A DNA stretch of 64,000 nucleotides from Candidatus Komeilibacteria bacterium RIFOXYD1_FULL_37_29 (GCA_001818495.1 MHKS01000004.1:1421-65420), one strand, 5' to 3'. Shown: positions 1 to 62,085, counted from the stretch's first letter. Notes: a model not told the origin generated them from the sequence alone. Translations and numbers: made by a program.

Positions 1-70
1 AGGCAATGTTCTTATTTGCGAATGTAAGATTTGGGGAGGTCAAGCTCTTTATGGAAAAACAATCGACCAG

Positions 71-307
71 TTGCTCGGATATTTAACTTGGAGGCAAAAT
101 TTTGGAATAATGATAACTTTTGTTAAACAAAAAAACTTTTCAAAAATATTAAATGAGGTGCAAGGTATAGTTACTCAACACGCAAGTTATAAATCGGGTT
201 TTCAACAAATATCTACAACTCATTTTCTCTCCCATCATGCATTAAGCCAGGATGAATCAAAAAGCGTAGAGATTCACCATCTTTTTTATAATTTGTTTTG
301 TGAATAA
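71..307 (+). CDS. hypothetical small protein (78 aa)
   Basis: ORF only; no recognisable motif; immediately upstream of and possibly co-transcribed with 310..615. Confidence 0.2.
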   Translation: MLGYLTWRQNFGIMITFVKQKNFSKILNEVQGIVTQHASYKSGFQQISTTHFLSHHALSQDESKSVEIHHLFYNLFCE

Positions 308-309
308 TT

Positions 310-615
310 ATGCAAACCGAATCAAAACAACAAATTTTAGAACGCCGGAAAGAGATTGAACGGGAACTCGTGGATATGCTCAAAGAGACCAAGAGTGATT
401 TTACTTTGGATCATATCCGAGATGTCATTTTTCACGAAGATGATAACGACGATATGATGAAAGTTGTGGCCATGTTCGATCGTGGCGGTGACGCTTCAGA
501 ATTGAGTAATGTTCTTGAATTGGTAACAGATGCTTGGAATTATTTTCCACATAAAATCCTTGGTGGTATTTCTCCAGCTGAAAAACTGTTGGAATATCAA
601 AATAAAAAGAAGTAA
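310..615 (+). CDS. hypothetical acidic protein (101 aa)
   Basis: Intact ORF abutting the next gene; no recognisable motif; first of three tightly packed small genes. Confidence 0.35.
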   Translation: MQTESKQQILERRKEIERELVDMLKETKSDFTLDHIRDVIFHEDDNDDMMKVVAMFDRGGDASELSNVLELVTDAWNYFPHKILGGISPAEKLLEYQNKKK

Positions 616-617
616 TT

Positions 618-794
618 ATGGCTGATGATAATAATCCAATAGAAAACGAAACAGAAGAAGCTCCGGACGAGGAAGTCGCCGAGCTTATGGAAGCTCACGA
701 TCTTGATAAGGACACGGCCGAGCGTGTGCAAGAGATCATGGAAGATTTAGGTGTGGACGAGGATGATGCCGTCGAAATCGAAGAAAGTCTTTAA
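618..794 (+). CDS. small highly acidic protein (58 aa, MADDNNPIENETEEAPDEE...)
   Basis: ATG 2 nt after stop of previous gene, stop 5 nt before next ATG; below the ORF-track length cutoff; GC-elevated relative to flanks. Confidence 0.3.
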   Translation: MADDNNPIENETEEAPDEEVAELMEAHDLDKDTAERVQEIMEDLGVDEDDAVEIEESL

Positions 795-799
795 TTTTT

Positions 800-1090
800 A
801 TGATTCCATCAAAAAAGAAAATCGACGAGTTAAAGGAATTGGTCAAAAGAGATTTTGGTGTTGAATGGACGGATCAGGAAGCCTCGGATGAAGCATTTAA
901 CTTGCTTAACTTTTACGATGCTCTGGGGAGATTCGCTATGGAGGATATCCAGAAGTATATCGACACCGGTGGAGAACCGAGTTTTGCAGGACCGGACTAT
1001 GATAAGTGGCTAGCAGAGCAGGCGGAAATCGTTAAAAAGATTCAGGCAGATCGGAAGGAAGTCTCTAAATCAAAAAAACGAAAAGGTTAA
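800..1090 (+). CDS. hypothetical protein (96 aa), lysine-rich C-terminus
   Basis: Intact ORF tightly packed with upstream small genes; contains internal copy of TTGCTTAACTTTT motif. Confidence 0.35.
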   Translation: MIPSKKKIDELKELVKRDFGVEWTDQEASDEAFNLLNFYDALGRFAMEDIQKYIDTGGEPSFAGPDYDKWLAEQAEIVKKIQADRKEVSKSKKRKG

Positions 1091-1109
1091 GCAAACATGA
1101 CTCAGCGTA

Positions 1110-1140
1110 ATTTGCTTAACTTTTCCGAAGTTAAGCAAAT
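1110..1140. promoter_or_regulatory. perfect 13-bp-arm palindrome ATTTGCTTAACTT-ttccg-AAGTTAAGCAAAT (operator-like or RNA hairpin)
   Basis: Read directly; a third half-site GTTAAGCAAA at 1086-1095; related copies at 903-915 and 47960-47973. Confidence 0.35.
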
Positions 1141-1392
1141 CGTTCTAGGCTCGCAAATTTCGTCAAACCGGTGGGCTATGTTTGCAAGAGGTGTCAAAGG
1201 TCTATTCGGGGTGCAAAGCTCGCCCCAAGGGCAGACACGGGGCAACAACGTTTTACTTTTTGGCTAGGAGGAGGTCGTAGTTGTAAAACTTGGCAACTTT
1301 CTTGATGTTATTCATTTTTTCGCGTAAAGTAACCATATACTCTTTATCCTCGAGCACTGTTATAAGACCCGACAGTGCCTGACCCCACAAGA

Positions 1393-1420
1393 ACACCTCC
1401 CTCTGGGGAGGTGTTTTTTT
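1393..1420 (+). terminator. Rho-independent terminator (CACCTCCC-tctg-GGGAGGTG + T7)
   Basis: GC stem-loop followed by T-run; followed by extended -10 TGGTATAAT at 1431-1439. Confidence 0.6.
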
Positions 1421-1430
1421 AGGTTTTTTT

Positions 1431-1439
1431 TGGTATAAT
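1431..1439 (+). promoter_or_regulatory. extended -10 promoter element TGGTATAAT upstream of 1483 gene
   Basis: TGnTATAAT consensus; same TTTTTTGGTATAAT module recurs at 13552, 19911, 21244, 24109, 35002. Confidence 0.4.
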
Positions 1440-1482
1440 AATTTTATGAGTTGGAGTATTAAAACTCACTAAAATTTAGGTT

Positions 1483-2823
1483 ATGAACATAGATCACTTG
1501 AGAAAATATAAATTTTTTATATGGGTTACCAGGCCATATTCCATATCTAGAGAATTTACATTTTTGCAACAATTTAACAAAGAGGGTCTCAAATGTTTTC
1601 TTCTAGTACCAGAAAGTAAATATATAGGTAATTATTATCTTGATGAGCATTCTTATAATATTGTTTTAAAAAAGGTGTATAAACGAATACTTAAATCTTC
1701 TGATTTGCATTTGAATGATTATGACAAAAAAGTTAAAGATCTCTTACAAAAATCAATGGATTTAGGTTCGTCAGCTGGTGTAGTGGCCGATCAGCAGTTA
1801 TTAGAAAAGTACTATCAATATTTAGTAAGCACCAATAATTTTTTTGATTATATATTCTTACCATTTGCTTTAATACAATATACGGAGCCAGAATTAAAAA
1901 GAAAATTTGCTAATAATTTTGAAACTATTATAGCCCCAGAAAAAGCTACTAAGTATCAATTAATGGAGCAAATGCTTTTGACTGAATCATTAGAAAAAGT
2001 ACAAAAAGAGTGGGGGTGGTTAAATGCTTATCATGTAGCTGAACCGTCTTATTCTATAGCGGAGCTAGAAAAAATTAAGACTGCTTTGGATAAAAATATA
2101 GTAGAAAAGTTATTTAGTAGTTTTTCAAAGAACAAAGTAGAATTTGATAAATTTATTAAACAAGTTAAAAATTCAGAAGACAAAGTAAAATGTATTTTGT
2201 TTCATCAATATGCATATTTGAGAAACGATAGAGTTGATATTTGGAAACGAGGGCTTTATTTAACAAGACCATTTTTTAAGTATTTACAATCAAAGTTTAC
2301 CAATATATCTCTTAGGGCAGCTTCAAATTTGACTTACGAAGAAATAGAGAGAATTCTTTTGAATCAAAAAATACCCAAAGAATCAGAAATAAAAAAGAGA
2401 GATAGCGCTTTTATTTATTATTTTACAGATAGTATGCACATAGTAACAGATAAACAAGATATTATTGATATACAAAATATGTTTAAGCACAATGTATCTC
2501 CAGTGCAAGAGTTTACAGGAACCATAGCTAATGAGGGGATAGCTAAAGGGGCAGTAAAGATTGTTAATTCATATCAGGAGTTAGAAAAGGTAAATAGAGG
2601 GGATATTTTAGTTGCCAAAGTTACAGATCCCCGTTATACCCCTTATATGCGTATAGCATCAGCTATTATCACAGACGAGGGAGGAGTTTTATCACACGCT
2701 TCTATTACTAGCAGGGAACTCAATTTGCCCTGTATAGTTGGTACTAAGATAGCTAGCAAAGTATTAAAAGATGGCGATATGGTTGAAGTGGATGCTAATC
2801 ATGGAATAGTTAGAAAATTATAG
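1483..2823 (+). CDS. protein with C-terminal PEP-utilising-enzyme mobile (phosphohistidine swivel) domain; N-terminal ~360 aa unknown
   Basis: C-terminus GGVLSHASITSRELNLPCIVG matches the phosphohistidine swivel domain signature of PEP synthase/PPDK/rifampin phosphotransferase; no ATP-grasp GGK motif seen. Confidence 0.6.
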   Translation: MNIDHLRKYKFFIWVTRPYSISREFTFLQQFNKEGLKCFLLVPESKYIGNYYLDEHSYNIVLKKVYKRILKSSDLHLNDYDKKVKDLLQKSMDLGSSAGVVADQQLLEKYYQYLVSTNNFFDYIFLPFALIQYTEPELKRKFANNFETIIAPEKATKYQLMEQMLLTESLEKVQKEWGWLNAYHVAEPSYSIAELEKIKTALDKNIVEKLFSSFSKNKVEFDKFIKQVKNSEDKVKCILFHQYAYLRNDRVDIWKRGLYLTRPFFKYLQSKFTNISLRAASNLTYEEIERILLNQKIPKESEIKKRDSAFIYYFTDSMHIVTDKQDIIDIQNMFKHNVSPVQEFTGTIANEGIAKGAVKIVNSYQELEKVNRGDILVAKVTDPRYTPYMRIASAIITDEGGVLSHASITSRELNLPCIVGTKIASKVLKDGDMVEVDANHGIVRKL

Positions 2824-2843
2824 TTTAGTAACACGAATTAAAA

Positions 2844-2922
2844 TTTTGACCAATCTAGGGTTCGGAATTCATCCCACAAGTGACCCCATCAGAAAGTAAG
2901 CTAATTTAAGCTTATTTTTTGA
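2844..2922. repeat. intergenic repeat copy A: conserved ~55-nt core (TTTTGACCAATCTAGGGTTCGGAATTCATCCCACAAGTGACCCCATCAGAAAGT) + palindromic hairpin TAAGCT-aattt-AGCTTA + T-run
   Basis: Near-identical to 5317-5393, related to 8243-8323, 9080-9146 and partial 6428-6470. Confidence 0.55.
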
Positions 2923-2980
2923 TAAGGTATAGTTTATTATAGAATTAAAATATAAATTTTGCTATACTTTCTATGTAAAT

Positions 2981-3835
2981 ATGAAATTTATGAATAAAGA
3001 AAATCCCACACAAAATAATAGTAATGAAATATTTCTAACCAGGCACAGTGAGGCTGAATATAGGACCAATAGAGCCATTCTAGAAAATGATCCAGAAGGT
3101 TCGTTAGATCCAGAAGATCAAATTTCGCCCGATTTATCAGAAAAAGGGAAAAAACTTGCTAGGGAAAAAGCAGAAGAATTTTTTTCTAAATTAAATCACC
3201 AAGAAGATTCTTTGTTTTTTGTTTCTAGTAATCAGATAAGAGCTATTGAGACAGCTAATATTTATCGGGAGGTTGCTAAAGAGAAAGGATTTGAGATACT
3301 AAAACCAGAGCATACTAGGAGTGAATATTCAGAAGATATGAGTGGTGGAGATATAAGAGTTGTCCAAAGTTTATCATTGCAGGTTCCCAATATGATTATT
3401 CAACATGTATTTTCTAGGGAGGAAGCTTTAAAAGGAGTTGATTGGGATAAGGTTTCAGAGGAAACAAAAGAAAAATGGGATAGGGCTAGAAAAATTATTG
3501 AAGCCGATGATCATGGTTCATGGGGGGCTAATTATTATTATCATTCTGAAGAAATAAAAAAGATTTTTCCTGAATTAAAATCGGCTAAAGATTTAGATGA
3601 AGCACAGTTTAAGAACGTATTAAGGCTTGTTAAATTTGCCGATAAAAAGATAAAAGAGTCGGGATCAGAGAAAAAGATTAAAATTCTTGGTTTTGGACAT
3701 GAAAACTATTTAGGTGTAGCATTGAACGAGTATTTTCAAGATCATGAAATCAAGAATTGTGAGACAGTCAGTTTTCAAGTTGATGAAGATAATATAAAGG
3801 CATCATTTAGGGGGCAGGAAAAAGATATAAGTTAA
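2981..3835 (+). CDS. histidine phosphatase superfamily (phosphoglycerate mutase-like) protein, divergent
   Basis: N-terminal LTRHSEAEY (RHG-type catalytic motif variant) and SSNQIRAIETA second motif; sits between the two swivel-domain paralogues. Confidence 0.45.
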   Translation: MKFMNKENPTQNNSNEIFLTRHSEAEYRTNRAILENDPEGSLDPEDQISPDLSEKGKKLAREKAEEFFSKLNHQEDSLFFVSSNQIRAIETANIYREVAKEKGFEILKPEHTRSEYSEDMSGGDIRVVQSLSLQVPNMIIQHVFSREEALKGVDWDKVSEETKEKWDRARKIIEADDHGSWGANYYYHSEEIKKIFPELKSAKDLDEAQFKNVLRLVKFADKKIKESGSEKKIKILGFGHENYLGVALNEYFQDHEIKNCETVSFQVDEDNIKASFRGQEKDIS

Positions 3836-3856
3836 TTATATTAATATTTTAGTCTT

Positions 3857-5296
3857 ATGAAAAATAAAAATTGGAATTTTGTATATAGTGAAGGACATTC
3901 ATTGCTTCTTAATGAAGTATTTTTTAATGCCTTTACTAATTTTCCCCAAATTCCTGGTATTTTTAAAACCATCCTTTATATAAATAGACACGGGGATCAG
4001 ACTTGTTATGTACCCCCATCTGAAATGACTCGCGTGCGTCAACAAGGTAAAATCTTTTTTGACGTTAAGTATCGGGCACAATTTAAGAAAAATATAGCCA
4101 ACCAAGCAGCAAAATTTAATTTATTTTGGCAAAAGTACAAAAAAACAAAGATTTTATTACTTAATAATGATCAGCTACTTTCTCTTTTTAAAGAATATAT
4201 AGATAATTTAACATTAATGTGCGCTTATTATCAGGTTTCAGGCGGAAGGTCTTACCCATTATTGGAAGAATATGTTAAACAAGAAATGTATTCTTATTTT
4301 AATAAAAATGACGTACCTAAATATTATTCTTTAGTTTTAACATCTACAAAAATTGATTTATTGGAGCGCGAGGAAATAGCTTTACTTAAATTATCAGCAA
4401 AAAAAGCAATCAATTCAAAACAACTTATTGATCATGCTATTAATTATGCCTTTCATTATTTATGTGGATATAATGATGAGAAAATACTGAGTTCACTTAA
4501 GCAGCGTATTTTAGATTTAAAGAAAAAATACAAGTCCGATTCTCTTTATATCAATAAATTTAGTAAAGAGAGAAGATCACTTATGAATCAACGTAATAGA
4601 ATAATGAAAAAATTAATCAAAAATAAACAATTGGTTAACACTATCCAATTTTTAAGAGAGCAAGGGAGATTACGTTTCGAATATAAAGAGTGGTTTTTTG
4701 GAGCGGAGTATAAATTTTTATATATATTTAAAGAGATTGCCAAGCGTTTAGGAATTTCATTGGAAGATTATTTTCTTAGTTATCGTATTGATGATACTAT
4801 TAAATTTTTACAAAATGATATTAAAGTTTCTCAGACTACAATATACGAAAGATCAAAGATATTTATATTTTATCAAAACAAAGGGAAGAAATATTTTTAT
4901 AGTGGTAAATCTGCTGAAGAAAAAGAGGAGGTACTAATGGGTACAGCCATTAAGCAAGAGAGCGTAGTGAGGGGTGTATCGGCTAATCCAGGGAAAGTTA
5001 GTGGAAAAGTCAGAATCATTTTACCTAAAAGTTTTGAGCATATTCAAAGAGCTTTAACATATTTTCAGCAAGGTGAGGTATTAATTACTACAATGACACA
5101 GCCCAGCCTTATTTCTATTATGAAGAGAGCATGCGCGATGGTAACAAATCAGGGTGGTATAACTTCCCACGCAGCCATCATATCAAGAGAGTTTGATATC
5201 CCTTGTATTGTTGGCACGCATATTGCGACAGAGGTATTTAAAGATGGCGATATGGTTGAAGTGGATGCTGATCACGGAATAGTTAGAAAATTATAG
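3857..5296 (+). CDS. paralogue of 1483..2823: unknown N-domain + C-terminal PEP-utilising mobile phosphohistidine domain
   Basis: C-terminus GGITSHAAIISREFDIPCIVG...KDGDMVEVDADHGIVRKL; last ~60 nt and 3' flank almost identical at nucleotide level to 2761-2900. Confidence 0.6.
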   Translation: MKNKNWNFVYSEGHSLLLNEVFFNAFTNFPQIPGIFKTILYINRHGDQTCYVPPSEMTRVRQQGKIFFDVKYRAQFKKNIANQAAKFNLFWQKYKKTKILLLNNDQLLSLFKEYIDNLTLMCAYYQVSGGRSYPLLEEYVKQEMYSYFNKNDVPKYYSLVLTSTKIDLLEREEIALLKLSAKKAINSKQLIDHAINYAFHYLCGYNDEKILSSLKQRILDLKKKYKSDSLYINKFSKERRSLMNQRNRIMKKLIKNKQLVNTIQFLREQGRLRFEYKEWFFGAEYKFLYIFKEIAKRLGISLEDYFLSYRIDDTIKFLQNDIKVSQTTIYERSKIFIFYQNKGKKYFYSGKSAEEKEEVLMGTAIKQESVVRGVSANPGKVSGKVRIILPKSFEHIQRALTYFQQGEVLITTMTQPSLISIMKRACAMVTNQGGITSHAAIISREFDIPCIVGTHIATEVFKDGDMVEVDADHGIVRKL

Positions 5297-5316
5297 TTTA
5301 GTAACACGAATTAAAA

Positions 5317-5393
5317 TTTTGACCAATCTAGGGTTCGGAATTCATCCCACAAGTGACCCCATCAGAAAGTTAGCTTAAAAGGCTAATTTTTTG
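5317..5393. repeat. intergenic repeat copy B (core identical to copy A, different terminal hairpin TTAGC-ttaaaag-GCTAA + T-run)
   Basis: Direct sequence comparison with 2844-2922. Confidence 0.55.
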
Positions 5394-5444
5394 ATACACT
5401 CTAATGGGGTATCGAACTAAATTATAATTTGATATAATAATTTT

Positions 5445-6311
5445 ATGAAAATACCCACAAAAAAACTTAAAAATGGATTTGAGTTACCAGATTTAGGGCT
5501 TGGTACTTGGAAAATTGGTGGCGGTCGGGAGGTTGATACGTCACGCGACAGCGGGTCTATAGAAGCGGTCAAGAAAGCTATAGCTATGGGCTATATCCAT
5601 ATTGACACGGCTGAAGTCTATGGAGCCGGTCATTGTGAAGAGCTAATTGGTCAAGCTATTAAAGATTTCCCTAGAGAAAATTTAATTATTACCAGTAAAG
5701 TAGCCAGAGTTAATTTGGCCTATGACGATGTACTTAGAGCCGCTGAAAAAAGCTTGCAAAAACTGGACATAGATTATATAGACCTTTATTATATTCACGC
5801 GCCAAATCCTGAAATTTCTCTGAAAGAAACAATAAGGGCAATGGACAGGTTAGTGAGTGATAAATTGGTAAAAAATATAGCGGTTAGTAATTTTACAGTT
5901 GATTTATTAAAAGAAGCACAAGCTTATTCAGATAATAAAATTGTAGCTAATCAAATAGAATACAGCTTACTTACTAGAAACAAAGGTAGCCACGGATTAC
6001 CATATGCTGATAACGTAGATATGGAGTCTAAGACTTTACCATATTGTCAGGAGAATGATATTTTGGTCGTGGCAGAAAGGCCTTTAGAAAGAGGTATATT
6101 ATTAGAAAAAAATGAGTTGATGGGTAAGATGGTTAAAAAGTATAATAAGTCGTATGCACAAATTGCTATTAACTGGTTAATATCACAAAAAAATGTAGTT
6201 ACTATTCCCAAATCAGATAATATAGAGCATTTAGAAGAAAATTTGGGAGGAGTAGGATGGAAAATGGAAGAGGAAGATATTGAGCTTTTAAGGCAAAAAT
6301 ATAACAATTAG
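5445..6311 (+). CDS. aldo/keto reductase family oxidoreductase
   Basis: LGLGTW, IDTAEVYG, and overall AKR (TIM-barrel NADP-dependent oxidoreductase) motif order. Confidence 0.85.
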   Translation: MKIPTKKLKNGFELPDLGLGTWKIGGGREVDTSRDSGSIEAVKKAIAMGYIHIDTAEVYGAGHCEELIGQAIKDFPRENLIITSKVARVNLAYDDVLRAAEKSLQKLDIDYIDLYYIHAPNPEISLKETIRAMDRLVSDKLVKNIAVSNFTVDLLKEAQAYSDNKIVANQIEYSLLTRNKGSHGLPYADNVDMESKTLPYCQENDILVVAERPLERGILLEKNELMGKMVKKYNKSYAQIAINWLISQKNVVTIPKSDNIEHLEENLGGVGWKMEEEDIELLRQKYNN

Positions 6312-6427
6312 TTTTAACCTAAATTATCAAATACTACTGAGTGGCATTTCATAAGGTTGGAATATCACTTTTGGTATGTCAAAATCGTCTGAAATAAACA
6401 TCAAGCTGGTTTTTATACGCTCTACTG

Positions 6428-6470
6428 TGGCACCCTATCAGAAAGTTAGCTAACGATAGCTAATTTTTTG
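6428..6470. repeat. partial copy D of the intergenic repeat (GTGGCACCCTATCAGAAAGT + hairpin TTAGCTA-acga-TAGCTAA + T6); bidirectional terminator between convergent genes
   Basis: Sequence similarity to 3' half of copies A-C. Confidence 0.45.
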
Positions 6471-6472
6471 TT

Positions 6473-7078
6473 TTAATTAAATTGTATGAGTTTATGCTTA
6501 TTTTTATCAGTATTTTCTATAATAGCAATAGCTCCATTTTTTAATTTATATTTTTTATAGTTGTCTTTAGTAATAGGTAAATTTAGTATTTTTAAAATTA
6601 ACATAGCAATAGCCCCCACATGGCTGACTATCAATATCTGATTATTTTTATGTTTGCCTATTAAAGATAAATAAAAATTATATATTCTTTTTTGTAAATC
6701 AAGATAGGACTCTCCTTCAGGAAAACGCTGTGTTCCAAAAATTTCACCGCTAGATTTCTCTAGTGCTTCTCTGTCTTTTCTTAAGATACCGCCATGTATG
6801 CCGTGATTTCTTTCTTTGAGTTCCGGACAAGGAATAATTTTTAATTTAGAGTGATTTTTGATTACTTCCTGAGCAGTTTCCAGACATCTTTTCATATCGC
6901 TACTATATAGATAATCTATTTTTTGGTTTTTCAAAACATTAGCTATATTTATAGCCTGCTTTATTCCAACATCATTAAGATTACTATCAATGGTCTGACC
7001 CATAGATATACCTACAGTGTTTTCATATGTTTGCCCGTGGCGTATAAATATTGCTTTCATATTATATATATTTGACAT
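6473..7078 (-). CDS. histidine phosphatase family protein (phosphoglycerate mutase-like)
   Basis: IFIRHGQTYEN (RHG motif), SSDMKRCLETAQ second motif, C-terminal His region. Confidence 0.75.
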   Translation of the reverse strand: MSNIYNMKAIFIRHGQTYENTVGISMGQTIDSNLNDVGIKQAINIANVLKNQKIDYLYSSDMKRCLETAQEVIKNHSKLKIIPCPELKERNHGIHGGILRKDREALEKSSGEIFGTQRFPEGESYLDLQKRIYNFYLSLIGKHKNNQILIVSHVGAIAMLILKILNLPITKDNYKKYKLKNGAIAIIENTDKNKHKLIQFN

Positions 7079-7148
7079 ATAAAACAGTATTGTTATAATA
7101 TCACATTGAATCGTTACTTAACAATCATAATAAATCGGAGGAACACAA

Positions 7149-8099
7149 ATGTCCAAGATTAACAAAAAGCTGCTGGACATACACACGGAGCTTGACAGAG
7201 CAATTCTAGATTTAGCTTTTTTTGGAAAGTTGAATCACAATTTTCATCCTGCTGCGGCAGGGGATGTTAGTCAGGTTTTTTCCAGTGAAGCAAGTACGGA
7301 ATTAGCATCTCGTTTTCACAGTCAAGCCAGCAAATGGTTTCCAATTTCCAAAATAGAGGAGTTGGCATATATTAGGGCTGACGGACGCACAGATTATAGA
7401 AGCGAGGGAGTTAGCAACACTTCTTTCTATGCTTATTCCAAGTGTCTTGCCAATAGAGTGATGCTCATTACCAGAACAGGATCACAAATCCCGGCTATTT
7501 CACAAACCATTTTAGAGGGTTTAGAAGGCACATTACTTGTTCTTCTGGAAATCAATGATGCTGGTGATGCTATCAGAATTTTGTTTGGCAACAAACAGTT
7601 TGGTTCTATTCCCTCCATAGAAACACATGTTCATATTTTAGGAGGAGCCATAGGAATTAAGGAGGGAATAGAAACGCCAGCTTTGGTTCACGCTCATCCC
7701 TTAGAACTTATTCTGTTGGCATCGCACCCCAGAATCAAGGGTAACCAAGATCTCTTCAACGCTATTTTGTATACCCAAGTAGAGGGAATTAACAGAATAG
7801 AGCCAGGCTTAGTAGCTCTTGTGCTTTACAAGCCATCTGGATCAGCTATTTTAGTAGAATCTAGCATATCTTCTTTGGAGAGGCATAAGATAGTTATCTG
7901 GCTAAACCATGGAGTTGTAGTTAGAGCTTCAAGTATCGAGCGTGGTTATGCAGTCATGGCCTATGCAGATAGAGATGCTAAGGTGGCTCTCCAGGCTCTA
8001 GCTGGGAAGTTTGTGGGTTTGCCGTTTGATGTCGTGGAAAGTTTTTTACGACAGCACAATTTGTTAGATTCTTATAACCATCTGGGATTGAATAAATAA
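7149..8099 (+). CDS. class II aldolase/adducin-domain protein (RhaD/FucA-like) with N-terminal extension
   Basis: VHAHP (HxH metal ligands) and later WLNHGVVVRASSIERGYAVMAYADRDAKVA resembling class II aldolase His/Ala-rich helix; good SD (GGAGGAACACAAATG); GC-elevated (~43%). Confidence 0.45.
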   Translation: MSKINKKLLDIHTELDRAILDLAFFGKLNHNFHPAAAGDVSQVFSSEASTELASRFHSQASKWFPISKIEELAYIRADGRTDYRSEGVSNTSFYAYSKCLANRVMLITRTGSQIPAISQTILEGLEGTLLVLLEINDAGDAIRILFGNKQFGSIPSIETHVHILGGAIGIKEGIETPALVHAHPLELILLASHPRIKGNQDLFNAILYTQVEGINRIEPGLVALVLYKPSGSAILVESSISSLERHKIVIWLNHGVVVRASSIERGYAVMAYADRDAKVALQALAGKFVGLPFDVVESFLRQHNLLDSYNHLGLNK

Positions 8100-8109
8100 G
8101 GAGGACACA

Positions 8110-8205
8110 ATGATTATCCCAGAGGAAGGTCGCATAATTTTATGCGACCTTTTTCTTAATCAGATAAACCACCAGCGATTAGCCGGAGGTATGTTCATTT
8201 TATAA
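8110..8205 (+). CDS. possible 31-aa small ORF (MIIPEEGRIILCDLFLNQINHQRLAGGMFIL)
   Basis: Consensus SD AAGGAGG 5 nt upstream of ATG, directly after aldolase-like gene; no homology inferable. Confidence 0.2.
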   Translation: MIIPEEGRIILCDLFLNQINHQRLAGGMFIL

Positions 8206-8242
8206 AAATTAATTTAATTGTATTTCAGGAATACTATATTGC

Positions 8243-8323
8243 AATTTTGACCAATCTAGGGTTTTGAATTTATCCCATAAGTGACCCCATCAAAAAGTTA
8301 CCTAACAATAGCTAATTTTTTGT
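8243..8323. repeat. intergenic repeat copy C (core with 7 substitutions + hairpin + T-run)
   Basis: Alignment to copies A/B: TTTTGACCAATCTAGGGTTTTGAATTTATCCCATAAGTGACCCCATCAAAAAGT. Confidence 0.5.
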
Positions 8324-8373
8324 TTGTTAGAATAAGTGATATAATTGGTATATTAAAATTAGAAATTAAAATT

Positions 8374-9060
8374 ATGAAACTTATATTATTTGATATTGAT
8401 GGGACACTTATTGGAGGAAAACACGGACATCCCAAATCATATAGTGATGCTATAAAAGCTATTCACGGTATTGATATTGAAATTGACTGGAAAGGTGTTC
8501 AGGGTATGACTGACCAGCAGATATTAACAAAATATTTAGTGGTTAATAATATTCCAGAAAATATCATTAGTAAGAATATGGTCAGTTATATGAAGGAGAT
8601 GGAGAAATCTTTTAATGCTAGTATTGGTAACAGTACAATACATCCTTTAGATGGCGTAGAAAAATTATTAATAGAATTGAAATCTAAAGGAGCATTATTG
8701 GGATTGGTAACAGGAAATATAGTTTCCATTGCTCGGGCTAAGTTAGAAAAATTGAATTTATGGGGATACTTTAATGTGGGTGGTTTTGGTAGCGATGATA
8801 TTAGCAGAGCCAGACTAGTTAAATTAGCAATTCAAAGAGCAGAAAAAAAATTTAATTTTGTTTTTGATAAGAATGTAATTCTATTTGGAGATGCACCGCA
8901 GGATATGAAAGCAGGTATTGATGCAGATATATATACAATTGGGGTTACAACGGGAGTGTATTCAAAAGAAGATTTAAATAAGGTGGGTGCAAAGGTAGTT
9001 GTAGATTCACTTAAAAACACTAAGGAAATCGTAAAACTTATAGATAGTATTTTATTGTAA
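8374..9060 (+). CDS. HAD-superfamily hydrolase (phosphatase/beta-phosphoglucomutase-like)
   Basis: MKLILFDIDGTLI (DxDGT motif I), later GDAPQD motif IV; ORF-track start 8281 would read through the repeat, so internal ATG 8374 chosen. Confidence 0.75.
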   Translation: MKLILFDIDGTLIGGKHGHPKSYSDAIKAIHGIDIEIDWKGVQGMTDQQILTKYLVVNNIPENIISKNMVSYMKEMEKSFNASIGNSTIHPLDGVEKLLIELKSKGALLGLVTGNIVSIARAKLEKLNLWGYFNVGGFGSDDISRARLVKLAIQRAEKKFNFVFDKNVILFGDAPQDMKAGIDADIYTIGVTTGVYSKEDLNKVGAKVVVDSLKNTKEIVKLIDSILL

Positions 9061-9079
9061 ATATTTTATAGAACATTTT

Positions 9080-9146
9080 TAGGGTTCAGAATTTGTCCTC
9101 CAAATTATGCCATCTAAAAACTCGGGTCTAAAACCGAGTTTTTGGT
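9080..9146. repeat. degenerate copy E of intergenic repeat (TAGGGTTCAGAATTTGTCCTCCAAATTATGCCATCTAAAAA) fused to bidirectional terminator AAAACTCGG-gtctaaaa-CCGAGTTTTT
   Basis: Pattern match to core of copies A-C; hairpin + T-run between convergent genes. Confidence 0.4.
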
Positions 9147-9183
9147 TACAAAAAATTGAAAGAAATTTAGCCACTAAACTGAT

Positions 9184-11028
9184 TTATTCAATATCCCACG
9201 GAATTGATAGCTGACCGACAAAATCATAATCACCAAATAGTACATCAGCTACTCCAGAGCCTTCACTACCTGGTAGCCAGGCAGCTACGATGGCATCCCA
9301 ATCATTGCTTACAGCACTAATATCCAAGGGTCGACCGGATATAATAATAACTACCAATTTTTTACTGGCCGTTTTGACTCGTGTAATTCTGGCTAGGTCT
9401 TCGGTACTCAATCTAGGATGCTGATTGTCGCCCCAACCCTCGGCATAAGGTTTTTCGCCAACTACGGCAATACCTATATCAGCCAAGTCGTCGCTTACGG
9501 TAAATTTTCCTTCAAGATTATAATCAATGCTTGTGTTAGCCGAAACAGCCTGTTTGATTCCCGACAAAATAGTAGTACCAGGTACCCAGTTGCCGTCGAT
9601 ACCTTGCCATTCTACAGTCCAAGCGCCCATCTGCTGGCCAAGATTATCGGCCGCCGAACCAGCCACTACAATTCTCTTAGCATTGTTTGCCAGGGGCAAA
9701 GTATTATTTTTGTTTTTTAGTTCTACCAATGATTTGCGGACAGCTTCTCGAGCTAGCTTACGGTGAGCTGGAGCGCCGAGTATAGACAGATCAATTTTCG
9801 TCTGGTTTTGATCAAAAAGTCCCAAACTAAATTTGGCTCGCAAAATTCTACTGACGGCATCATCTAACCGCGCTGGGCTGATATCATGGTTTCGAAGGGC
9901 TTTTTGAAGGTCGGCGGTAAATTGCTGGTAATCAAACGGCAACATCACTAGATCAACTCCGGCATTGATGGCTGTGACAATGGATTGATACTTATTGTTA
10001 GATATTTCGTAAACGCCATACCAATCAGATACTACAAAACCTTTGAAGTCCAATTCGTTTTTTAAAACATCGGTCAATAAATAACGCTGGGCGGCCATAT
10101 TTTTTCCTTGCCAGTTATTTAAGCCGGCCATGACGCTCAGAGCGCCCTCATCAATTGCCGCTTGAAACGGCGGTAGGTGAGTGAGTCGCAACTGCGCTTC
10201 GGTTATTTGACTGTCGCCTTGATCAATTTTAAAGTTTTCATTAATTGAAGTTCCCCAAGTCATAGCACCGGTACCGACATAGTGTTTAGCTGTACCTAAA
10301 ACCATCGGCCAGTCACTGTTTGGATTTTGTAAACCGTTTAAATAAGCGCGTCCTAGTTTGGTCACTGTTTGAGTGTTGCTTCCAAAAGTTTCATAGACCC
10401 TGCCCCAGCGTATGTCTTGAGGCACATCTAGATTCGGACCAAAAGTCCAGTGAATGCCTGTGGCTAGCAGCTCTTCTCTGGTAGCCTGGGCCACTCTTTT
10501 GACCAACTCGGTATCGTTGGTAGCTCCTAGACCAATGGCCTGTGGGAAAACCACAGATCCCGGAACATTGGCATGACCATGGTTGGCGTCGACGCCGTAA
10601 AGCAAGGGAATTTTTAGACAGGTTTTTAAAGCTACGGCATTAAAATTTTCTACCATTTTAAGCCAAGCCTCCGGCGTATTTGGATTGGGTTTTGCTCCGG
10701 CTCCGCTCAGTAATGCACCCAAGTGGTAATCAGCAATGTCTTGTGGTTTTAGGAGACTGTTTTTTTCCACCAAGGCCAATTGGCCGATTTTTTCCGCCTC
10801 GGTCATACGACCAAGTAAATCCTTTATTCTTTCTTCAGTTGGAATACTGGGATCTAAATACTTAGCGCTAGCAGCAAGACAATTTCGTGTTTCAATGGCT
10901 GGGCTGGTGGTTCTAGCGGGATTTTTTGTAATTAACTGGTCAAATATAATAAAAGCCAGAGCGATTAATCCTATAGCCAAGATCATTGGGGTATAAAAAT
11001 TTTTTTTCTTTTTTTTCGCTTTGCTCAT
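9184..11028 (-). CDS. glycoside hydrolase family 3 (beta-glucosidase/BglX-like), N-terminal membrane anchor
   Basis: KHYVGTG (GH3 N-domain), GFVVSDW catalytic nucleophile motif, C-domain VVIIISGRPLDI; N-terminal polybasic + TM segment. Confidence 0.85.
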   Translation of the reverse strand: MSKAKKKKKNFYTPMILAIGLIALAFIIFDQLITKNPARTTSPAIETRNCLAASAKYLDPSIPTEERIKDLLGRMTEAEKIGQLALVEKNSLLKPQDIADYHLGALLSGAGAKPNPNTPEAWLKMVENFNAVALKTCLKIPLLYGVDANHGHANVPGSVVFPQAIGLGATNDTELVKRVAQATREELLATGIHWTFGPNLDVPQDIRWGRVYETFGSNTQTVTKLGRAYLNGLQNPNSDWPMVLGTAKHYVGTGAMTWGTSINENFKIDQGDSQITEAQLRLTHLPPFQAAIDEGALSVMAGLNNWQGKNMAAQRYLLTDVLKNELDFKGFVVSDWYGVYEISNNKYQSIVTAINAGVDLVMLPFDYQQFTADLQKALRNHDISPARLDDAVSRILRAKFSLGLFDQNQTKIDLSILGAPAHRKLAREAVRKSLVELKNKNNTLPLANNAKRIVVAGSAADNLGQQMGAWTVEWQGIDGNWVPGTTILSGIKQAVSANTSIDYNLEGKFTVSDDLADIGIAVVGEKPYAEGWGDNQHPRLSTEDLARITRVKTASKKLVVIIISGRPLDISAVSNDWDAIVAAWLPGSEGSGVADVLFGDYDFVGQLSIPWDIE

Positions 11029-11097
11029 GAGCTAATTATACCACTTATTTTTTCAAACAAAAAATAAGTGGTATAATTAAGATATTAAAATTCAAAT

Positions 11098-12015
11098 ATG
11101 AAAAAGATCATTCTGGGAATCGGAGCAGTGTTAGTAGTTTATCTAGCTTTTATTTTGATTAAATCATTTTTAACAGAAGCAGAAATACCGCAGACTAACA
11201 TTCAAAAACAAACAGAGGCCAAGGTTTTTTTGCAAGAATTTAAAGAAGAAAAAATAAAAGAATTTCAAAAATTAGGAGTTAATTTGGAAGATTGGCAAGC
11301 GGCTTATTTTTATTTTATCAGTGCACCAGAAAATGGATATTATGCAGAGGTCAGCGGAAGACAGGAACCAACTATAATATATGGTCCAAATGATAGAATT
11401 TTGCCTCGTAAATTTTCCTGGCAGGAGAGTATAGGTGGCATGAGTAAAATGGCTGGTTTACCAACAATGTACAATAATGTTTTATATTTTGTGAATAGTG
11501 GATGTACTGAAACAGCCAATAGTTTTAATTGTTTATCAGAACAATATTTAGAATATTCCAACGACTATGGCAAATCTTGGCAACAATCTTCTGTCCCTAT
11601 CCCTCAGCGTATTAAAGAAACTTATTTTGTTATTCATAACGAAACTTTATATCATATATATTCAAGCTGGTGTGACAATATTAGTATATTTCCTGCTCTC
11701 GGATATGATTGTGGAGAAGTATATATCAGAAAACTGGAAGAGGGCGATAGATGGAGTGAACCTAAAAAATTATTTTCAACCGCTCGTTCTTTATTGGGAG
11801 TTTATAGTAGTGAAGATTCATTGATGTTAATATGGCAAGATACCAGGTTTAATTGGGCTAATTGGTGTGGGTTTATACCGAGTATAGGTTGTGTTGACGG
11901 AGAGCCTACGAGCGGGCCATATGTATTATATCTTGGTCAATACAATGTACAAGCCGATACATTTGATGAATATATTATTCAGAATCAATATGATAAAGAT
12001 TTAAGGTTGTATTAA
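11098..12015 (+). CDS. hypothetical membrane-anchored Cys-containing protein (305 aa)
   Basis: N-terminal TM helix, several spaced Cys pairs; no family recognised. Confidence 0.4.
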   Translation: MKKIILGIGAVLVVYLAFILIKSFLTEAEIPQTNIQKQTEAKVFLQEFKEEKIKEFQKLGVNLEDWQAAYFYFISAPENGYYAEVSGRQEPTIIYGPNDRILPRKFSWQESIGGMSKMAGLPTMYNNVLYFVNSGCTETANSFNCLSEQYLEYSNDYGKSWQQSSVPIPQRIKETYFVIHNETLYHIYSSWCDNISIFPALGYDCGEVYIRKLEEGDRWSEPKKLFSTARSLLGVYSSEDSLMLIWQDTRFNWANWCGFIPSIGCVDGEPTSGPYVLYLGQYNVQADTFDEYIIQNQYDKDLRLY

Positions 12016-12032
12016 GCAAATTTTTTATAACA

Positions 12033-12056
12033 AAAACCCCCTCTCGGGGGTTTTTG
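12033..12056. terminator. bidirectional Rho-independent terminator AAAAACCCCC-tctc-GGGGGTTTTT
   Basis: Perfect GC hairpin flanked by A-run and T-run between convergent genes. Confidence 0.7.
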
Positions 12057-12081
12057 ATGCTTTAAAATAAGCTTTAATCAA

Positions 12082-13344
12082 TTAAATGTTTTTTCTCCAG
12101 TCGCGTTTAAATGGTTGGTGTCGACGTTTTTTAGAATGAAAATTATTACTTGGTCTAGTTCTATTACCAAAACCTCTTTTACGAGGCGCTTCTTTAGGAG
12201 CAACAATAATTTTATCCATTTTTGGTAAAGACCTGATAGGCAAACGGGTGCGAATCAGTTTTTCAATAGTAAAAATATCTCTTTTTTGTTCGGGAGCAGC
12301 AAACGATATGGCTTTGCCGTTTTTACCAGCGCGACCAGTCCGACCAATGCGGTGGACATAATCTTCTGGATTATCTGGCAGATCATAGTTGATAACCAAT
12401 TCTATGTCTTGGACATCAATACCACGAGAAGCAATATCAGTGGCTACCAAAACTCTAGTTAAACCTGATTTAAAATCTTTGAGAGCCTTGGTGCGTTGCA
12501 TCAATGATTTATTAGAATGTATTTCGGCGGCCGGATAACCCATAGCGTTTATAGAGCTAGTAATCTTTTTGGCACCATGTTTGGTTCTACTAAAAATAAG
12601 CACCCGCTGACCATATTCGGCCAGTAATTCGTTTAGTAAAGAAAGTTTTTGGGCTTGGGATACAATAAATACTTCTTGAGTTATACTAGCCAGAGTAGTT
12701 CCAGCTGGCGCCACTTCCACTCGTAGTGGAGAACGCATGTAGTTTTTAGCCAGTCTAGTTATTCTTTCGGGCATAGTAGCTGAAAAAAGCATAGTTTGAC
12801 GCTGACCAGTTGGTATAGTAGCTAAGATTTTTTTAATATCTGGTTCAAAGCCCATATCTAACATCCGATCAGCTTCGTCTAATACCAAAATTTTTACATT
12901 ACCAAGAATAGATCTTTTCTTACTGAGATGATCTATCAAACGACCAGGGGTAGCTATAATAATATGTGGTCGATTAGCCAGAGCTCTAGTCTGTGGGCCA
13001 ATGGCTGTACCACCGATAATGATAGCGGTGCGCAAACCAAAAGTACCACCCAAAGCCTTGAGAGATTGGTCCACTTGAGCAGCTAATTCACGAGTCGGTA
13101 AAAGCACTAGTCCAGTACCTTTGTTGTGAAACAAACGTTGAATCATAGGAATACCAAAAGCCATGGTTTTACCGGTGCCTGTTTGGGCAATACCCATAAG
13201 ATCCTGGCCAGTAATAGCAATGGGGATAGTTTGTTGTTGTATAGGTGTAGGTTTATTAAAGCCCAATTTTTGCAATTGGCTCAATATACTTGGAAGGATA
13301 TTTAATCCAGTAAAAGATAAGTTTTCGTTACTTGTTTTTGTCAT
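12082..13344 (-). CDS. DEAD-box ATP-dependent RNA helicase
   Basis: Q-motif, AQTGTGKT (Walker A), DEAD, SAT, HRIGRTGRAG motifs in order; basic C-terminal tail. Confidence 0.9.
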   Translation of the reverse strand: MTKTSNENLSFTGLNILPSILSQLQKLGFNKPTPIQQQTIPIAITGQDLMGIAQTGTGKTMAFGIPMIQRLFHNKGTGLVLLPTRELAAQVDQSLKALGGTFGLRTAIIIGGTAIGPQTRALANRPHIIIATPGRLIDHLSKKRSILGNVKILVLDEADRMLDMGFEPDIKKILATIPTGQRQTMLFSATMPERITRLAKNYMRSPLRVEVAPAGTTLASITQEVFIVSQAQKLSLLNELLAEYGQRVLIFSRTKHGAKKITSSINAMGYPAAEIHSNKSLMQRTKALKDFKSGLTRVLVATDIASRGIDVQDIELVINYDLPDNPEDYVHRIGRTGRAGKNGKAISFAAPEQKRDIFTIEKLIRTRLPIRSLPKMDKIIVAPKEAPRKRGFGNRTRPSNNFHSKKRRHQPFKRDWRKNI

Positions 13345-13551
13345 ATATAAAAATTACGACCCGATATTCCATCTGGTCGTATTTATATAAAACGAGAGGT
13401 TCCGAGCCCTGCTCCTTAAAATCGGAGCTTAATAATTGGCTATTATATACTATAATAGTATATTTGTCAATAGTAGAGGCATCTTCCCTCACTATCTGCC
13501 TGTCGGTCACATTCCGCCAAAGGTGGCTAGTTTTTTATTTGAAAGAATAGG

Positions 13552-13560
13552 TGGTATAAT
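13552..13560 (+). promoter_or_regulatory. extended -10 TGGTATAAT upstream of NYN gene
   Basis: Consensus match 29 nt upstream of ATG 13589. Confidence 0.35.
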
Positions 13561-13588
13561 AAAAATATAAAAATTAGGAATTAAAATT

Positions 13589-14119
13589 ATGGAAGAGCAA
13601 AATCAGATAAATCAAAAAATAAGACAACGGATTATCAATCAATCGGTCGCTATACTTTGCGATGGTAATAATATTGAAAGAAGTATTCACGCGATTTCTA
13701 ATAACAAAAATGCCATGATTGATTTTGATGCCGTTATTCCCAAGCTATTAAACGGCCGAGGTTTGAATAGATTACTATATTTTCGTGAAGGCACCTCTAT
13801 TTCAGCCAAGTTTGCTGAAAGACTGCATGAAAATTATTATGGTTCAGTGATTCCCTGCCATAAATCAGCTGACATTCCTTTGACAATCAAAGCCACTCAG
13901 CTGGCTTCCAAGGTTGACACTATTATAATAATGTCTGGTGATTCTGATTATGTAGATTTGGTGTCATATATGAAAGGTGAGGGTGTCAGAGTAGAGATAG
14001 CAGCTCTTAAAAAAACTACCTCCAAAGCGTTGATTGATGAAGCTGATTATTTTCATGAGATTGTTAAAGAAGATTGGTTTGTCTACAAAGCTCCTAGTAA
14101 ATATGTTAAGAGAGTGTAG
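13589..14119 (+). CDS. NYN-domain (LabA/DUF88-like) putative RNA nuclease
   Basis: AILCDGNN near N-terminus and IIIMSGDSDYVDLV matching NYN/LabA aspartate motifs. Confidence 0.55.
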   Translation: MEEQNQINQKIRQRIINQSVAILCDGNNIERSIHAISNNKNAMIDFDAVIPKLLNGRGLNRLLYFREGTSISAKFAERLHENYYGSVIPCHKSADIPLTIKATQLASKVDTIIIMSGDSDYVDLVSYMKGEGVRVEIAALKKTTSKALIDEADYFHEIVKEDWFVYKAPSKYVKRV

Positions 14120-14158
14120 TATATTGCATGAGTAAAAAGATAAAATAATAGATATTTT

Positions 14159-14905
14159 ATGGAGGCAGATAAAATCAAACAAGTTGTTCAAAAAAGTTAT
14201 GCCAACATAGCCACCAAGCCCAGTGGTGGTTGTAAGTGTAGCTGTAGTTCAGATAACAGTGAAGCAATTTCCAAAAGCATTGGCTACTCTGACGAGCAGA
14301 TAGCAGTCGCACCAGAAGCCAACCTTGGTCTGGGTTGTGGCAATCCAACGGCTATTAGTAAAATAAAAGTCGGGGAGACTGTTTTGGATCTTGGCTGTGG
14401 TGCCGGCTTTGATGCTTTTTTAGCCGCCAAAAAAGTTGGCGATACTGGTAAGGTTATTGGTGTAGATATGACTCAGGAGATGATTGATAAAGCCAAAGTA
14501 TTGGCTGAAAAATATAATTATAAAAATGTCGGATTTAAGTGGGGGGAAATTGAAAATTTACCCATAGCTGATAATTCTATAGATGTTGTAATTAGCAATT
14601 GTGTGATTAATTTGGCTCCAGATAAATTAAAGGTATTTAAAGAAGCCTATAGAGTTTTAAAAACCGGAGGTAAAATGTACGTTTCCGATATTGTTTTATT
14701 AAAAGATTTGTCTAAAGAACAGAGAAACAATGAAGATTTAATAGCCAGCTGTGTCGGTGGAGCGCTTTTAAAGGATGATTATATAGACAAGGTTAAACAA
14801 GCTGGTTTAACAGTAAATATTTTAAGTGAAAATAAAGATATTAGTAAAAAACAGTACCAAGGTTTACCTCTTGAAAGCTTATCTTTAGAAATTATTAAAA
14901 TATAA
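14159..14905 (+). CDS. SAM-dependent methyltransferase, arsenite methyltransferase (ArsM)-like
   Basis: Cys-rich N-terminus (GGCKCSCSS), GCGNP motif, [14 protein letters not shown]-binding motif I, conserved Cys later (NCVINL, SCVGG). Confidence 0.55.
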
Positions 14906-26226: not shown

Positions 26227-26958
26227 TTATTGATTTAAGGCCGCTAAAAATAGATCTTCATTGGGTTTGTGGGGGAGATGGCCGATATTATTTATATAGT
26301 TTATTTTTATATAGCCATCACGATCAATGACAAGTTTCGTCACTGATGATTGATATATTTCCATTGATAAAAAGCCAATAATATCAGTATTTAAAATACT
26401 GGTGATCATCGCGCGGATTAAGTTGCCATGGCAAAAAAGTCCAACCCTTTGGCCTTTATTTTTTTTATAGATATCAGCTAAAATACGGCGGGATTTTTCT
26501 TGTAGTTTGTTCATCTTATCATTCATAGATGTATATTCCCGGACTTTTTTAATACGGGTTTTTTCAGACATTCTAAAATATTTTACTTTATACCATTCAG
26601 TCCAATCTACTTCATCTAGACGTTTATCTATATACATCTTTTTTTTGTGTTCTTTGGCAAATTCCTGAGCTGTTTCTTTGGACCTGACAAATTCACTGAT
26701 ATATATTTTTTCCAGCCCAATCTGTTTTAATTTATTATTAAGTAATTTCCTTTGTTTTTTACCCAATTTAGACAAAGGCATACCTTTGTCACCTAATTTT
26801 TTTTTGAGAGAATAGTCAGGATGGCAATGTCGTATCAGATAGATTCTGGTGTAGGGGCCATTAATTACCTGTCGGGTTTTAGCATAAGGAGTCTGCTCTT
26901 CTACCGATGGTTCTTTAAGGCCAAGCTTTACAAAAGGAATTGTTAATTTTATACTCAT
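26227..26958 (-). CDS. histidine phosphatase family protein
   Basis: IYLIRHCHPDY (RHG-type motif), SEFVRSKETAQ, CHGNLIRA C-terminal His motif. Confidence 0.6.
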   Translation of the reverse strand: MSIKLTIPFVKLGLKEPSVEEQTPYAKTRQVINGPYTRIYLIRHCHPDYSLKKKLGDKGMPLSKLGKKQRKLLNNKLKQIGLEKIYISEFVRSKETAQEFAKEHKKKMYIDKRLDEVDWTEWYKVKYFRMSEKTRIKKVREYTSMNDKMNKLQEKSRRILADIYKKNKGQRVGLFCHGNLIRAMITSILNTDIIGFLSMEIYQSSVTKLVIDRDGYIKINYINNIGHLPHKPNEDLFLAALNQ

Positions 26959-61939: not shown

Positions 61940-62015
61940 CGTCCTGTAGCTCAGCTGGTTAGAGCATCACTCTTATAAAGTGGGGGTCCCGGGTTCAAAT
62001 CCCGGCAGGACGACC
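61940..62015 (+). tRNA. tRNA-Ile (anticodon UAU), CCA encoded
   Basis: Cloverleaf folded by hand: acceptor CGTCCTG/CAGGACG, D-arm GCTCAGCTGGTTAGAGC, anticodon stem TCACT/AGTGG with loop CTTATAA, T-arm CCGGGTTCAAATCCCGG, 3' ACCA. Confidence 0.85.
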
Positions 62016-62085
62016 ATTTAATTAAATTGACACACTTATTGGTTTTTGGTAAAATTGTATAGTTAAACTAAACAAATACAAATAT

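Follow-up and report, generated by a model that had tools for sequence, protein, structure and literature searches.

Positions 1483 to 9146 of a 64,000-nucleotide (nt) stretch of Candidatus Komeilibacteria bacterium RIFOXYD1_FULL_37_29 (GCA_001818495.1; MHKS01000004.1, 1421 to 65420) hold a block of genes that includes two paralogues, A and B, each ending in a phosphohistidine swivel domain. The whole 64-kb stretch is called the window here. Between A and B lies the gene for HP1, an atypical protein of the histidine-phosphatase fold, and B is followed by genes for an aldo-keto reductase (AKR), a canonical histidine phosphatase (HP2), a class II aldolase-like protein, and a HAD-family phosphatase (Table 1). 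All open reading frames (ORFs) of the block were found at the positions that an earlier model-made reading of the bare DNA (the sequence-only reading) had assigned to them. Below, a module is a substrate domain of the rifampin phosphotransferase (RPH) type (N) plus a swivel domain (S), NS denotes one module, and G denotes a stand-alone gene that encodes a PPDK_N ATP-grasp domain only.

The C terminus of each paralogue matches PF00391 above the gathering threshold of 23.1 bits (aa 371 to 441 of A, E 4.9e-23, 81 bits; aa 403 to 474 of B, E 8.9e-24, 83.3 bits), and no other Pfam family matched A or B. Two paralogues with a C-terminal swivel domain had indeed been proposed from the sequence; the catalytic His is invariant in the family alignment and is kept in all 143 non-phosphoenolpyruvate (PEP) synthase swivel domains at the relatives' loci that we examined. 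In B, a Thr stands two residues ahead of the catalytic His, the place of the regulatory-site Thr of PEP synthase. The BLASTP alignment of A with B is confined to the last 107 aa (48% identity), and an N-domain profile from which B was left out aligns with the full length of B (97.6 bits, E 4.6e-32). We take A and B to be true but old paralogues.

The N domains were previously described as unrecognizable, a view that both profile and fold comparison overturn: they are predicted to have the fold of the RPH substrate ("rifampin-binding") domain, placed directly ahead of the swivel domain. The modeled N domain, mostly helical, fits the substrate domain of RPH when superposed and does not fit ATP-grasp. 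The sequences of three RPH crystal structures are matched by a profile made from 46 members of the family (E ∼3e-33), with profile positions 207 to 477 falling on RPH 603 to 878, and partial NCBIfam matches to RPH-type models continue upstream past the swivel domain (NF004882 aligns to B 234 to 478). In the profile alignment, the most conserved N-domain motif, [YFW][LIF][RK][TDN]xRx[DE], lies on RPH block 9 (R666-E667...K670). At the Arg666 position, 40 of the 46 members have R or K; the second basic residue is R in 41, and the acid two residues on is present in 41; most have T, D, or N at the Glu667 position. The motif of B is LRFEYKE, which reads R-x-E-x-K-E. Mutagenesis has shown that the second phosphotransfer of RPH requires both Arg666 and Glu667, and block 9 is retained even in the remotest RPH clades (PMC4844700). 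As a single query against 1.84 billion cluster representatives, the N domain of A found only 133 matches, and by these comparisons the domain evolves fast.

For the window, profiles of PPDK_N and of the PEP-binding barrel were run on all ORFs of ≥70 aa, and Pfam was run on 39 ORFs (9 of the block region and 30 of at least ∼220 aa elsewhere). Neither an ATP-grasp domain (PF01326/PPDK_N) nor a barrel was found in the window by either route. This agrees with the earlier assignment of A and B to a rifampin-phosphotransferase type that carries no ATP-grasp or barrel in cis. The accompanying statement that the window has no ATP-grasp also stands, but not for the reason given, the missing GGK-type P-loop, which ATP-grasps do not have.

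These searches bear on the idea that A and B are truncated PEP synthase paralogues in which the N-terminal ∼350 aa is a degenerate PPDK_N domain and the barrel was lost. The swivel domain does begin near the same residue as in PEP synthase, it is nearer in sequence to PEP synthase (E 1e-49) than to RPH (3e-33), and the best partial NCBIfam matches are PEP synthase models. But a PPDK_N profile of 28 canonical PEP synthases has no match at E ≤10 in A, B, or any ORF of the window, and PF01326 is missing from A and B; the helical model does not superpose on ATP-grasp; and in the fusion proteins described below, a real ATP-grasp precedes the N domain. The question whether the N termini align to PPDK_N, which the sequence-only reading had posed against itself, is thus answered in the negative by profile search and fold comparison alike, which refute the truncation idea; we give it almost no credence.

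A and B also share their 3' ends. The two tracts in Table 1 are identical at 130 of 133 nt, whereas the swivel-coding DNA immediately upstream is 50 to 57% identical. Near-identity by gene conversion had been suggested before, and it holds with one correction: the shared flank is a member of an 85-nt repeat that occurs in four copies, all intergenic within the block. Because the identity reaches 72 nt upstream of the repeat, into the last 19 codons, and so extends beyond the repeat into coding sequence, gene conversion is the simplest reading, by which the 3' ends of A and B would have been homogenized recently. The repeat has no copy outside the block in the window and no Rfam match, and with three full copies only, covariation is uninformative. 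It may act as a common terminator or regulatory element, or be a small mobile repeat.

Gene organization in relatives and the HP1 partner

We found >1000 database relatives of A, 330 to 520 aa in length, in which Pfam recognizes PF00391 alone; those with a named source come from Patescibacteria and DPANN archaea. Their organization was read from gene-context look-ups and from a scan of species-representative genomes. Some form tandem arrays: eight genes that take up ∼12 kb of a 20-kb stretch on a 1-Mb Patescibacteria contig (L001), seven consecutive genes on an archaeal contig (L002), ∼9 in Nealsonbacteria (L012), and at least 10 in Uhrbacteria (L017 and L099). The N domains of paralogues are below BLAST detection between one another.

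A separate ATP-grasp gene accompanies modules at several loci. A stand-alone G of ∼314 aa adjoins family genes in L018, L025, and L009, while on an Uhrbacteria contig at least 10 modules come first and G stands at the far end, >10 kb from some of them. Stand-alone G proteins are very numerous and 67 to 80% identical across many Patescibacteria classes. When loci were fetched starting from G, all three distinct loci had adjoining module genes.

The components also occur fused. G-N-S proteins, which have the RPH architecture, are encoded in L034 and L040 (816 and 828 aa); G is joined to two modules in L023 (1311 aa; 384-4319), to four in L020 (1994 aa; 8708-14692), and to eight in L016, from Woesearchaeota (3761 aa; 3323-14608). 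L033 encodes a multimodule polyprotein as a partial ORF of at least 2937 aa (1-8814), and L043 encodes a further one (5663-9862), with one N-terminal ATP-grasp and then several modules. None of the fusion proteins of L034, L040, L023, L020, L016, and L033 has masked bases, and the swivel domains of the polyproteins (L016, L033, L020, L023, and L043) all retain the catalytic His. Family members of 690 to 770 aa, considered as hidden ATP-grasp fusions, proved to be two fused modules with two swivel domains.

A is 40% identical in the N domain, and 45% identical overall, to a protein of the seven-gene array (L002 116-9719), whose archaeal contig carries RLI and RNase P p30. [quoted passage not shown]

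Proteins of 190 to 280 aa without a Pfam match lie between modules and G at two loci (L087 3070-6758; L089 101-1298 and 4360-5004), and in L087 a module is directly followed by an acylphosphatase gene; these may be additional partners. A 315-aa neighbor in L005 looks by eye like an S-adenosylmethionine methyltransferase and has no precomputed Pfam match.

HP1 recurs in part of this family. It has an RHG-type catalytic core and an alpha/beta fold and, with SixA and dPGM/PhoE of branch 1 and the MINPP and acid phosphatases of branch 2, shares the fold and the Arg-His...Arg...His-Glu set of the histidine phosphatase superfamily. It differs from them in scoring slightly under the Pfam His_Phos_1 threshold, in a ∼90-aa helical cap, and in forming a small family of its own. 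This family comprises 49 database clusters of 275 to 310 aa, mostly without any Pfam match, in which R21, H22, S82, S83, R87, T91, R126, H240, E241, N259, C260, and E261 are invariant. The HP1 of the window matches at 100% a database protein of Candidatus Komeilibacteria bacterium RIFOXYC1_FULL_37_11.

Homologues of HP1 lie inside operons of ATP-grasp and module genes in four other genomes, which bears out the earlier grouping of HP1 with the paralogues; the remotest homologue (L094) sits elsewhere. The arrangements are G-HP1-NS in L092, [G-x-S]-HP1-NS in L093, and NS-[G-x-S]-x-S-HP1-NS in L095, and in L043 HP1 is within a G-containing operon. The modules encoded directly 3' of HP1 in L092, L093, and L095 are among the five best matches to the N domain of B. 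By sequence, HP1 followed by a B-type module is a conserved pair. Conversely, an HP1 profile found no homologue at the other ∼34 family loci, so that HP1 would serve a subfamily and not the whole system. A 312-aa neighbor in L002, His_Phos-like by eye, is supported neither by BLASTP against HP1 nor by the HP1 profile.

Two roles can be suggested for HP1 by analogy. Phosphatases act after the kinase step in the Acv and Hpe pathways of phenolic catabolism; because a HAD phosphatase follows the dikinase AcvAB, HP1 could hydrolyze or rearrange the phospho-product, as a product phosphatase or mutase. Alternatively, because SixA and PGAM5 are protein phosphatases with the histidine-phosphatase fold, HP1 could be a phospho-swivel phosphatase that resets the swivel domain.

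Predicted charging of A and B

We consider it probable, from sequence, models, and analogy, that A and B are H-type subunits (as are HpeH, PpsA, CreH, and AcvA) of two-component ATP-dependent small-molecule dikinases of the RPH superfamily, charged by a separate G. A split system had been suspected from the DNA, in agreement with an H-type architecture that has no ATP-grasp in the chain; it had also been thought unassignable to any described system, which no longer applies, since two-component RPH-type dikinases are known (PpsAB, CreHI, AcvAB, and HpeHI).

In the proposed cycle, the ∼314-aa G protein would bind ATP and hand its beta,gamma-diphosphoryl group on to the His of the swivel domain (H405 in A and H438 in B), from which the gamma-phosphate would leave as Pi. 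The swivel domain would then swing back to its own N-terminal domain, where the conserved [RK]-x-x-R-x-[DE] site, which corresponds to RPH Arg666/Glu667/Lys670, would help to phosphorylate a hydroxyl of the bound small molecule, and the products would be AMP, Pi, and the phospho-product. As the N domains of A and B have diverged strongly, different substrates would be expected; the likeness of the swivel domains and the gene-converted 3' ends would follow if both proteins must dock on a common ATP-grasp partner. HP1 would be a dedicated partner of the B-type module. Since G is not near A, we infer charging in trans, with G assumed to act from elsewhere in the genome.

Several observations weigh against this proposal. 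Relatives' family genes have a separate PPDK_N-only subunit encoded beside them, but no G gene lies in the window or in the ∼8.5 kb upstream of A, which hold a type I restriction-modification system, a pair of reverse transcriptase and PD-(D/E)XK genes, and small ORFs. The window thus contains an incomplete copy of the system, two modules and HP1 with no G. At all four other module loci with HP1, G adjoins; the window is the exception, with A in the position of G. The arrays of L001 and L002 are likewise without G within 10 kb. The Glu667 position is Asn in A and mostly Thr, Asp, or Asn in the family; as Glu667 is not kept, the catalytic site would be similar to that of RPH and not identical. 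Finally, HpeH alone moves phosphate from 4-phosphoacetophenone to acetovanillone (PMC12167813), so that ATP-grasp-independent chemistry is possible.

The missing G, the presence of A in its slot, and the activity of HpeH alone would equally suit an alternative in which A and B are charged without PPDK_N, either by a phospho-metabolite donor (a transphosphorylase) or by a His-to-His relay from the RHG histidine phospho-enzyme of HP1, which retains every residue required for a phospho-His intermediate. On the other hand, elsewhere HP1 co-occurs with G and never replaces it, the fusion proteins always include G, stand-alone G occurs widely in these lineages and varies extremely little, and G may sit >10 kb from its modules; we found no described precedent for a relay from His_Phos to swivel. 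We regard charging without PPDK_N as unlikely and retain a separate G as the probable donor.

For the family as a whole, we propose more tentatively, as a possibility that we would not yet call probable, that CPR bacteria and DPANN archaea run a system of one ATP-grasp and many acceptor modules, in which one conserved PPDK_N protein would charge arrays, polyproteins, and dispersed modules such as A and B, some of them with HP1. The pattern of one G to many modules would explain why N domains have diverged while swivel domains and G are conserved. Our literature search on the family in CPR bacteria and DPANN archaea found no description of arrays or polyproteins served by one ATP-grasp unit. 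Arrays and polyproteins with one ATP-grasp, the HP1 partner, and the sharing across domains of life in CPR and DPANN appear to be new.

If the proposal is true, organisms with minimal genomes would gain a broad and quickly evolving means of phosphorylating scavenged metabolites or toxic small molecules, by which these could be trapped, activated, or neutralized. Modules fill much of the L001 stretch, and they are therefore probably an important part of small-molecule handling by these symbionts. RPH-type dikinases were reportedly called, by Stogios et al. (2016), a large unexplored family; few have known substrates, which are rifamycins and phenolic compounds. A, B, HP1, and a cognate G are concrete candidates for biochemistry. 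Such genes are commonly annotated as "PEP synthase," a label that the domain assignments correct and that can lead metabolic reconstructions of these lineages astray.

Other genes of the block and its surroundings

Pfam supports the earlier identification of the neighbors as an AKR, a His_Phos_1 protein (HP2), an Aldolase_II protein, and a HAD phosphatase; HP1, named with them, falls just short, as described above. In NCBIfam, HP2 scores best with models of alpha-ribazole phosphatase and PspA, in every case under cut-off, and the aldolase-family protein resembles rhamnulose-1-phosphate aldolase but is also under the NCBIfam cut-off (NF002963, 62 bits versus 170). The 31-aa ORF does have the ribosome-binding site claimed for it; it is uncalled in the public gene calls of the same contig (L096). 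A GH3 glycosidase gene, identified by Pfam, lies beyond the HAD gene and adjoins the block.

Table 1. Coordinates of the genes and other features of the block, counted from the first nucleotide of the window
Feature	Position	Strand	Remarks
Paralogue A, 446 aa	1483..2823	+	Predicted RPH-type substrate-binding domain, aa 1-~340; phosphohistidine swivel domain, aa ~345-446
A, phosphotransfer motif LRNDRVD, aa 246-252	2218-2238	+	Placed by family motif alignment
A, catalytic His405 codon	2695-2697	+	Motif GGVLSHAS
Putative gene-conversion tract, copy 1	2765..2897	+	3'-terminal 19 codons of A with the stop codon, then 74 nt of flank
85-nt repeat, copy 1	2837..2921	+	~60 nt conserved, then terminator-like hairpin and T-run
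HP1, atypical histidine-phosphatase-fold protein	2981..3835	+	Helical cap; public gene call starts at 2990
Paralogue B, 479 aa	3857..5296	+	Two-domain architecture as in A
B, catalytic His438 codon	5168-5170	+	Motif GGITSHAA
Putative gene-conversion tract, copy 2	5238..5370	+	3' end of B plus flank
85-nt repeat, copy 2	5310..5394	+	Sequence match
Aldo-keto reductase	5445..6311	+	PF00248, E 6e-59
85-nt repeat, partial copy (hairpin part)	6432..6473	+	Between AKR and convergent His_Phos_1 gene
HP2, canonical branch-1 histidine phosphatase	6473..7078	-	PF00300, E 3.5e-39
Class II aldolase/adducin-domain protein	7149..8099	+	PF00596, 30 bits (threshold 22.2); ~90-aa N-terminal extension
31-aa ORF	8110..8205		Directly 3' of aldolase-like gene; AAGGAGG 7 nt upstream of ATG
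85-nt repeat, copy 3	8238..8322	+	Upstream of HAD gene
HAD-family phosphatase	8374..9060	+	PF13419, E 2.4e-17; public call starts at 8320

The block had been read as one seven-gene module, which the neighborhoods of relatives do not support. Conservation was judged from a Pfam census, which took in 150 genes lying no more than 2 kb from family members at ∼31 other loci, and from BLAST clustering of 303 neighbors at 35 loci. The recurrent families listed in the census include neither an AKR nor a class II aldolase, and the clustering shows no common AKR or aldolase cluster; together, the two analyses rule out a conserved seven-gene module. Weakly recurrent among the 150 neighbors are HAD (HAD_2; four), HD (three), and His_Phos_1 (two) genes, and HAD genes lie inside the arrays of L001 and L014. 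The AKR, aldolase-like, HAD, and HP2 genes are tied to A and B solely by the block-specific 85-nt repeat.

This repeat, whose four copies in the window all lie in the block, is among the reasons for considering positions 1483 to 9146 as one pathway of sugar or small-molecule phosphates, with kinase modules, cleavage or conversion by the aldolase, reduction by the AKR, and dephosphorylation by the HAD and His_Phos proteins. Characterized class II aldolase-family enzymes use phosphorylated sugars, the GH3 gene adjoins, the placing of phosphatases after the kinase step has its parallel in the Acv and Hpe pathways, and several metagenome contigs carry an identical block. Those contigs come from the same species, however, and so are not independent; HP2 is on the opposite strand; and the neighborhood is unconserved in both analyses above. 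A single pathway across the block seems to us improbable.

Besides the restriction-modification system, the RVT_1 reverse transcriptase, and the PD-(D/E)XK nuclease mentioned above, the DNA left of the window (L096 1-8300) encodes a helix-turn-helix protein and a 415-aa protein; it looks like a defense island and suggests that the block lies in a variable region. With these genes immediately upstream, A and B might be kinases that inactivate antibiotics or toxins in an accessory or defense island, a hypothesis about substrates that is compatible with charging by a separate G. RPH itself is an antibiotic kinase (PMC4844700), the family includes tandem, fast-diverging paralogues, and Shedu-type and recombinase genes adjoin the L093 module; one survey reports rph-like matches from CPR genomes and counts them as resistance genes (PMC8651080). 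But PADLOC has no match for the seven block proteins or G, a dedicated phosphatase partner would reverse an inactivating phosphorylation, arrays also lie among housekeeping and sugar-nucleotide genes, similarity to RPH beyond the fold is restricted to the block 9 region, and distant RPH clades give no rifampin resistance (PMC4844700). Antibiotic or toxin inactivation is, in our view, quite unlikely, and less likely than a single pathway.

Just upstream of A, positions 310-1090 hold three short and highly acidic ORFs (101, 58, and 96 aa), followed by a strong terminator at 1389-1418. A third His_Phos_1 gene is found at 26227-26958 on the minus strand (E 5.7e-30), ∼20 kb off the block, which makes three genes of the histidine-phosphatase fold in the 64 kb. 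A tRNA-Ile gene with anticodon TAT is present at 61940-62016; most bacteria read AUA by a lysidine-modified CAU tRNA, and decoding by a UAU tRNA-Ile would be uncommon.

Comparison with known dikinases

A and B share with PEP synthase and PPDK a homologous swivel domain (E 1e-49 to PEP synthase of the Pyrococcus furiosus type) with the GGxxSHAAIxSRE motif. Unlike those enzymes, they have neither PPDK_N nor a PEP/pyruvate TIM barrel, and their N domain is related to neither. From RPH (Listeria monocytogenes 5HV1/5FBS), they differ in having no ATP-grasp in the chain, for which reason they are not RPH enzymes in the strict sense, in an identity of 15%, and in the loss of the Glu667 equivalent in A.

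The nearest counterparts are the two-component dikinases HpeHI of Rhodococcus, AcvAB of Sphingobium, PpsAB phenylphosphate synthase of Thauera, and CreHI of Corynebacterium. The two-component form is established by experiment: HpeI is the ATP-grasp protein, and HpeH, modeled as a RIF-binding-like domain plus a swivel domain, has an essential conserved His (PMC12167813). The characterized phenolic kinases are ∼45% identical among themselves. A and B fall outside this group in several respects. With 446 and 479 aa, they are shorter than PpsA (catalytic His569) and HpeH (His581), which are ∼600-aa proteins. NCBIfam models of the PRK08296 type, which we take to be the PpsA-like ones, match only residues ∼314 to 445, with 68 to 90 bits versus cut-offs of 578 to 730. 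The swivel domain of A and B is PEP synthase-like, and partner G does not adjoin them in the window. By these comparisons, A and B belong to a clade apart from the phenolic kinases. The system differs from theirs also in its hosts, CPR bacteria and DPANN archaea, in substrates that are not obviously phenolic, and in the service of many modules, in arrays and polyproteins, by one G in relatives, which is undescribed for the enzymes of aromatic catabolism.

Despite these differences, A and B are built as are the H-type subunits of HpeHI, AcvAB, PpsAB, and CreHI, with a substrate domain and a C-terminal His swivel on one subunit and the PPDK_N ATP-grasp on a separate protein. The predicted reaction is also theirs, ATP + X-OH -> AMP + Pi + X-O-P via phospho-His. 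As in the Acv pathway, a phosphatase is encoded nearby, of the histidine-phosphatase fold here and of the HAD type there.

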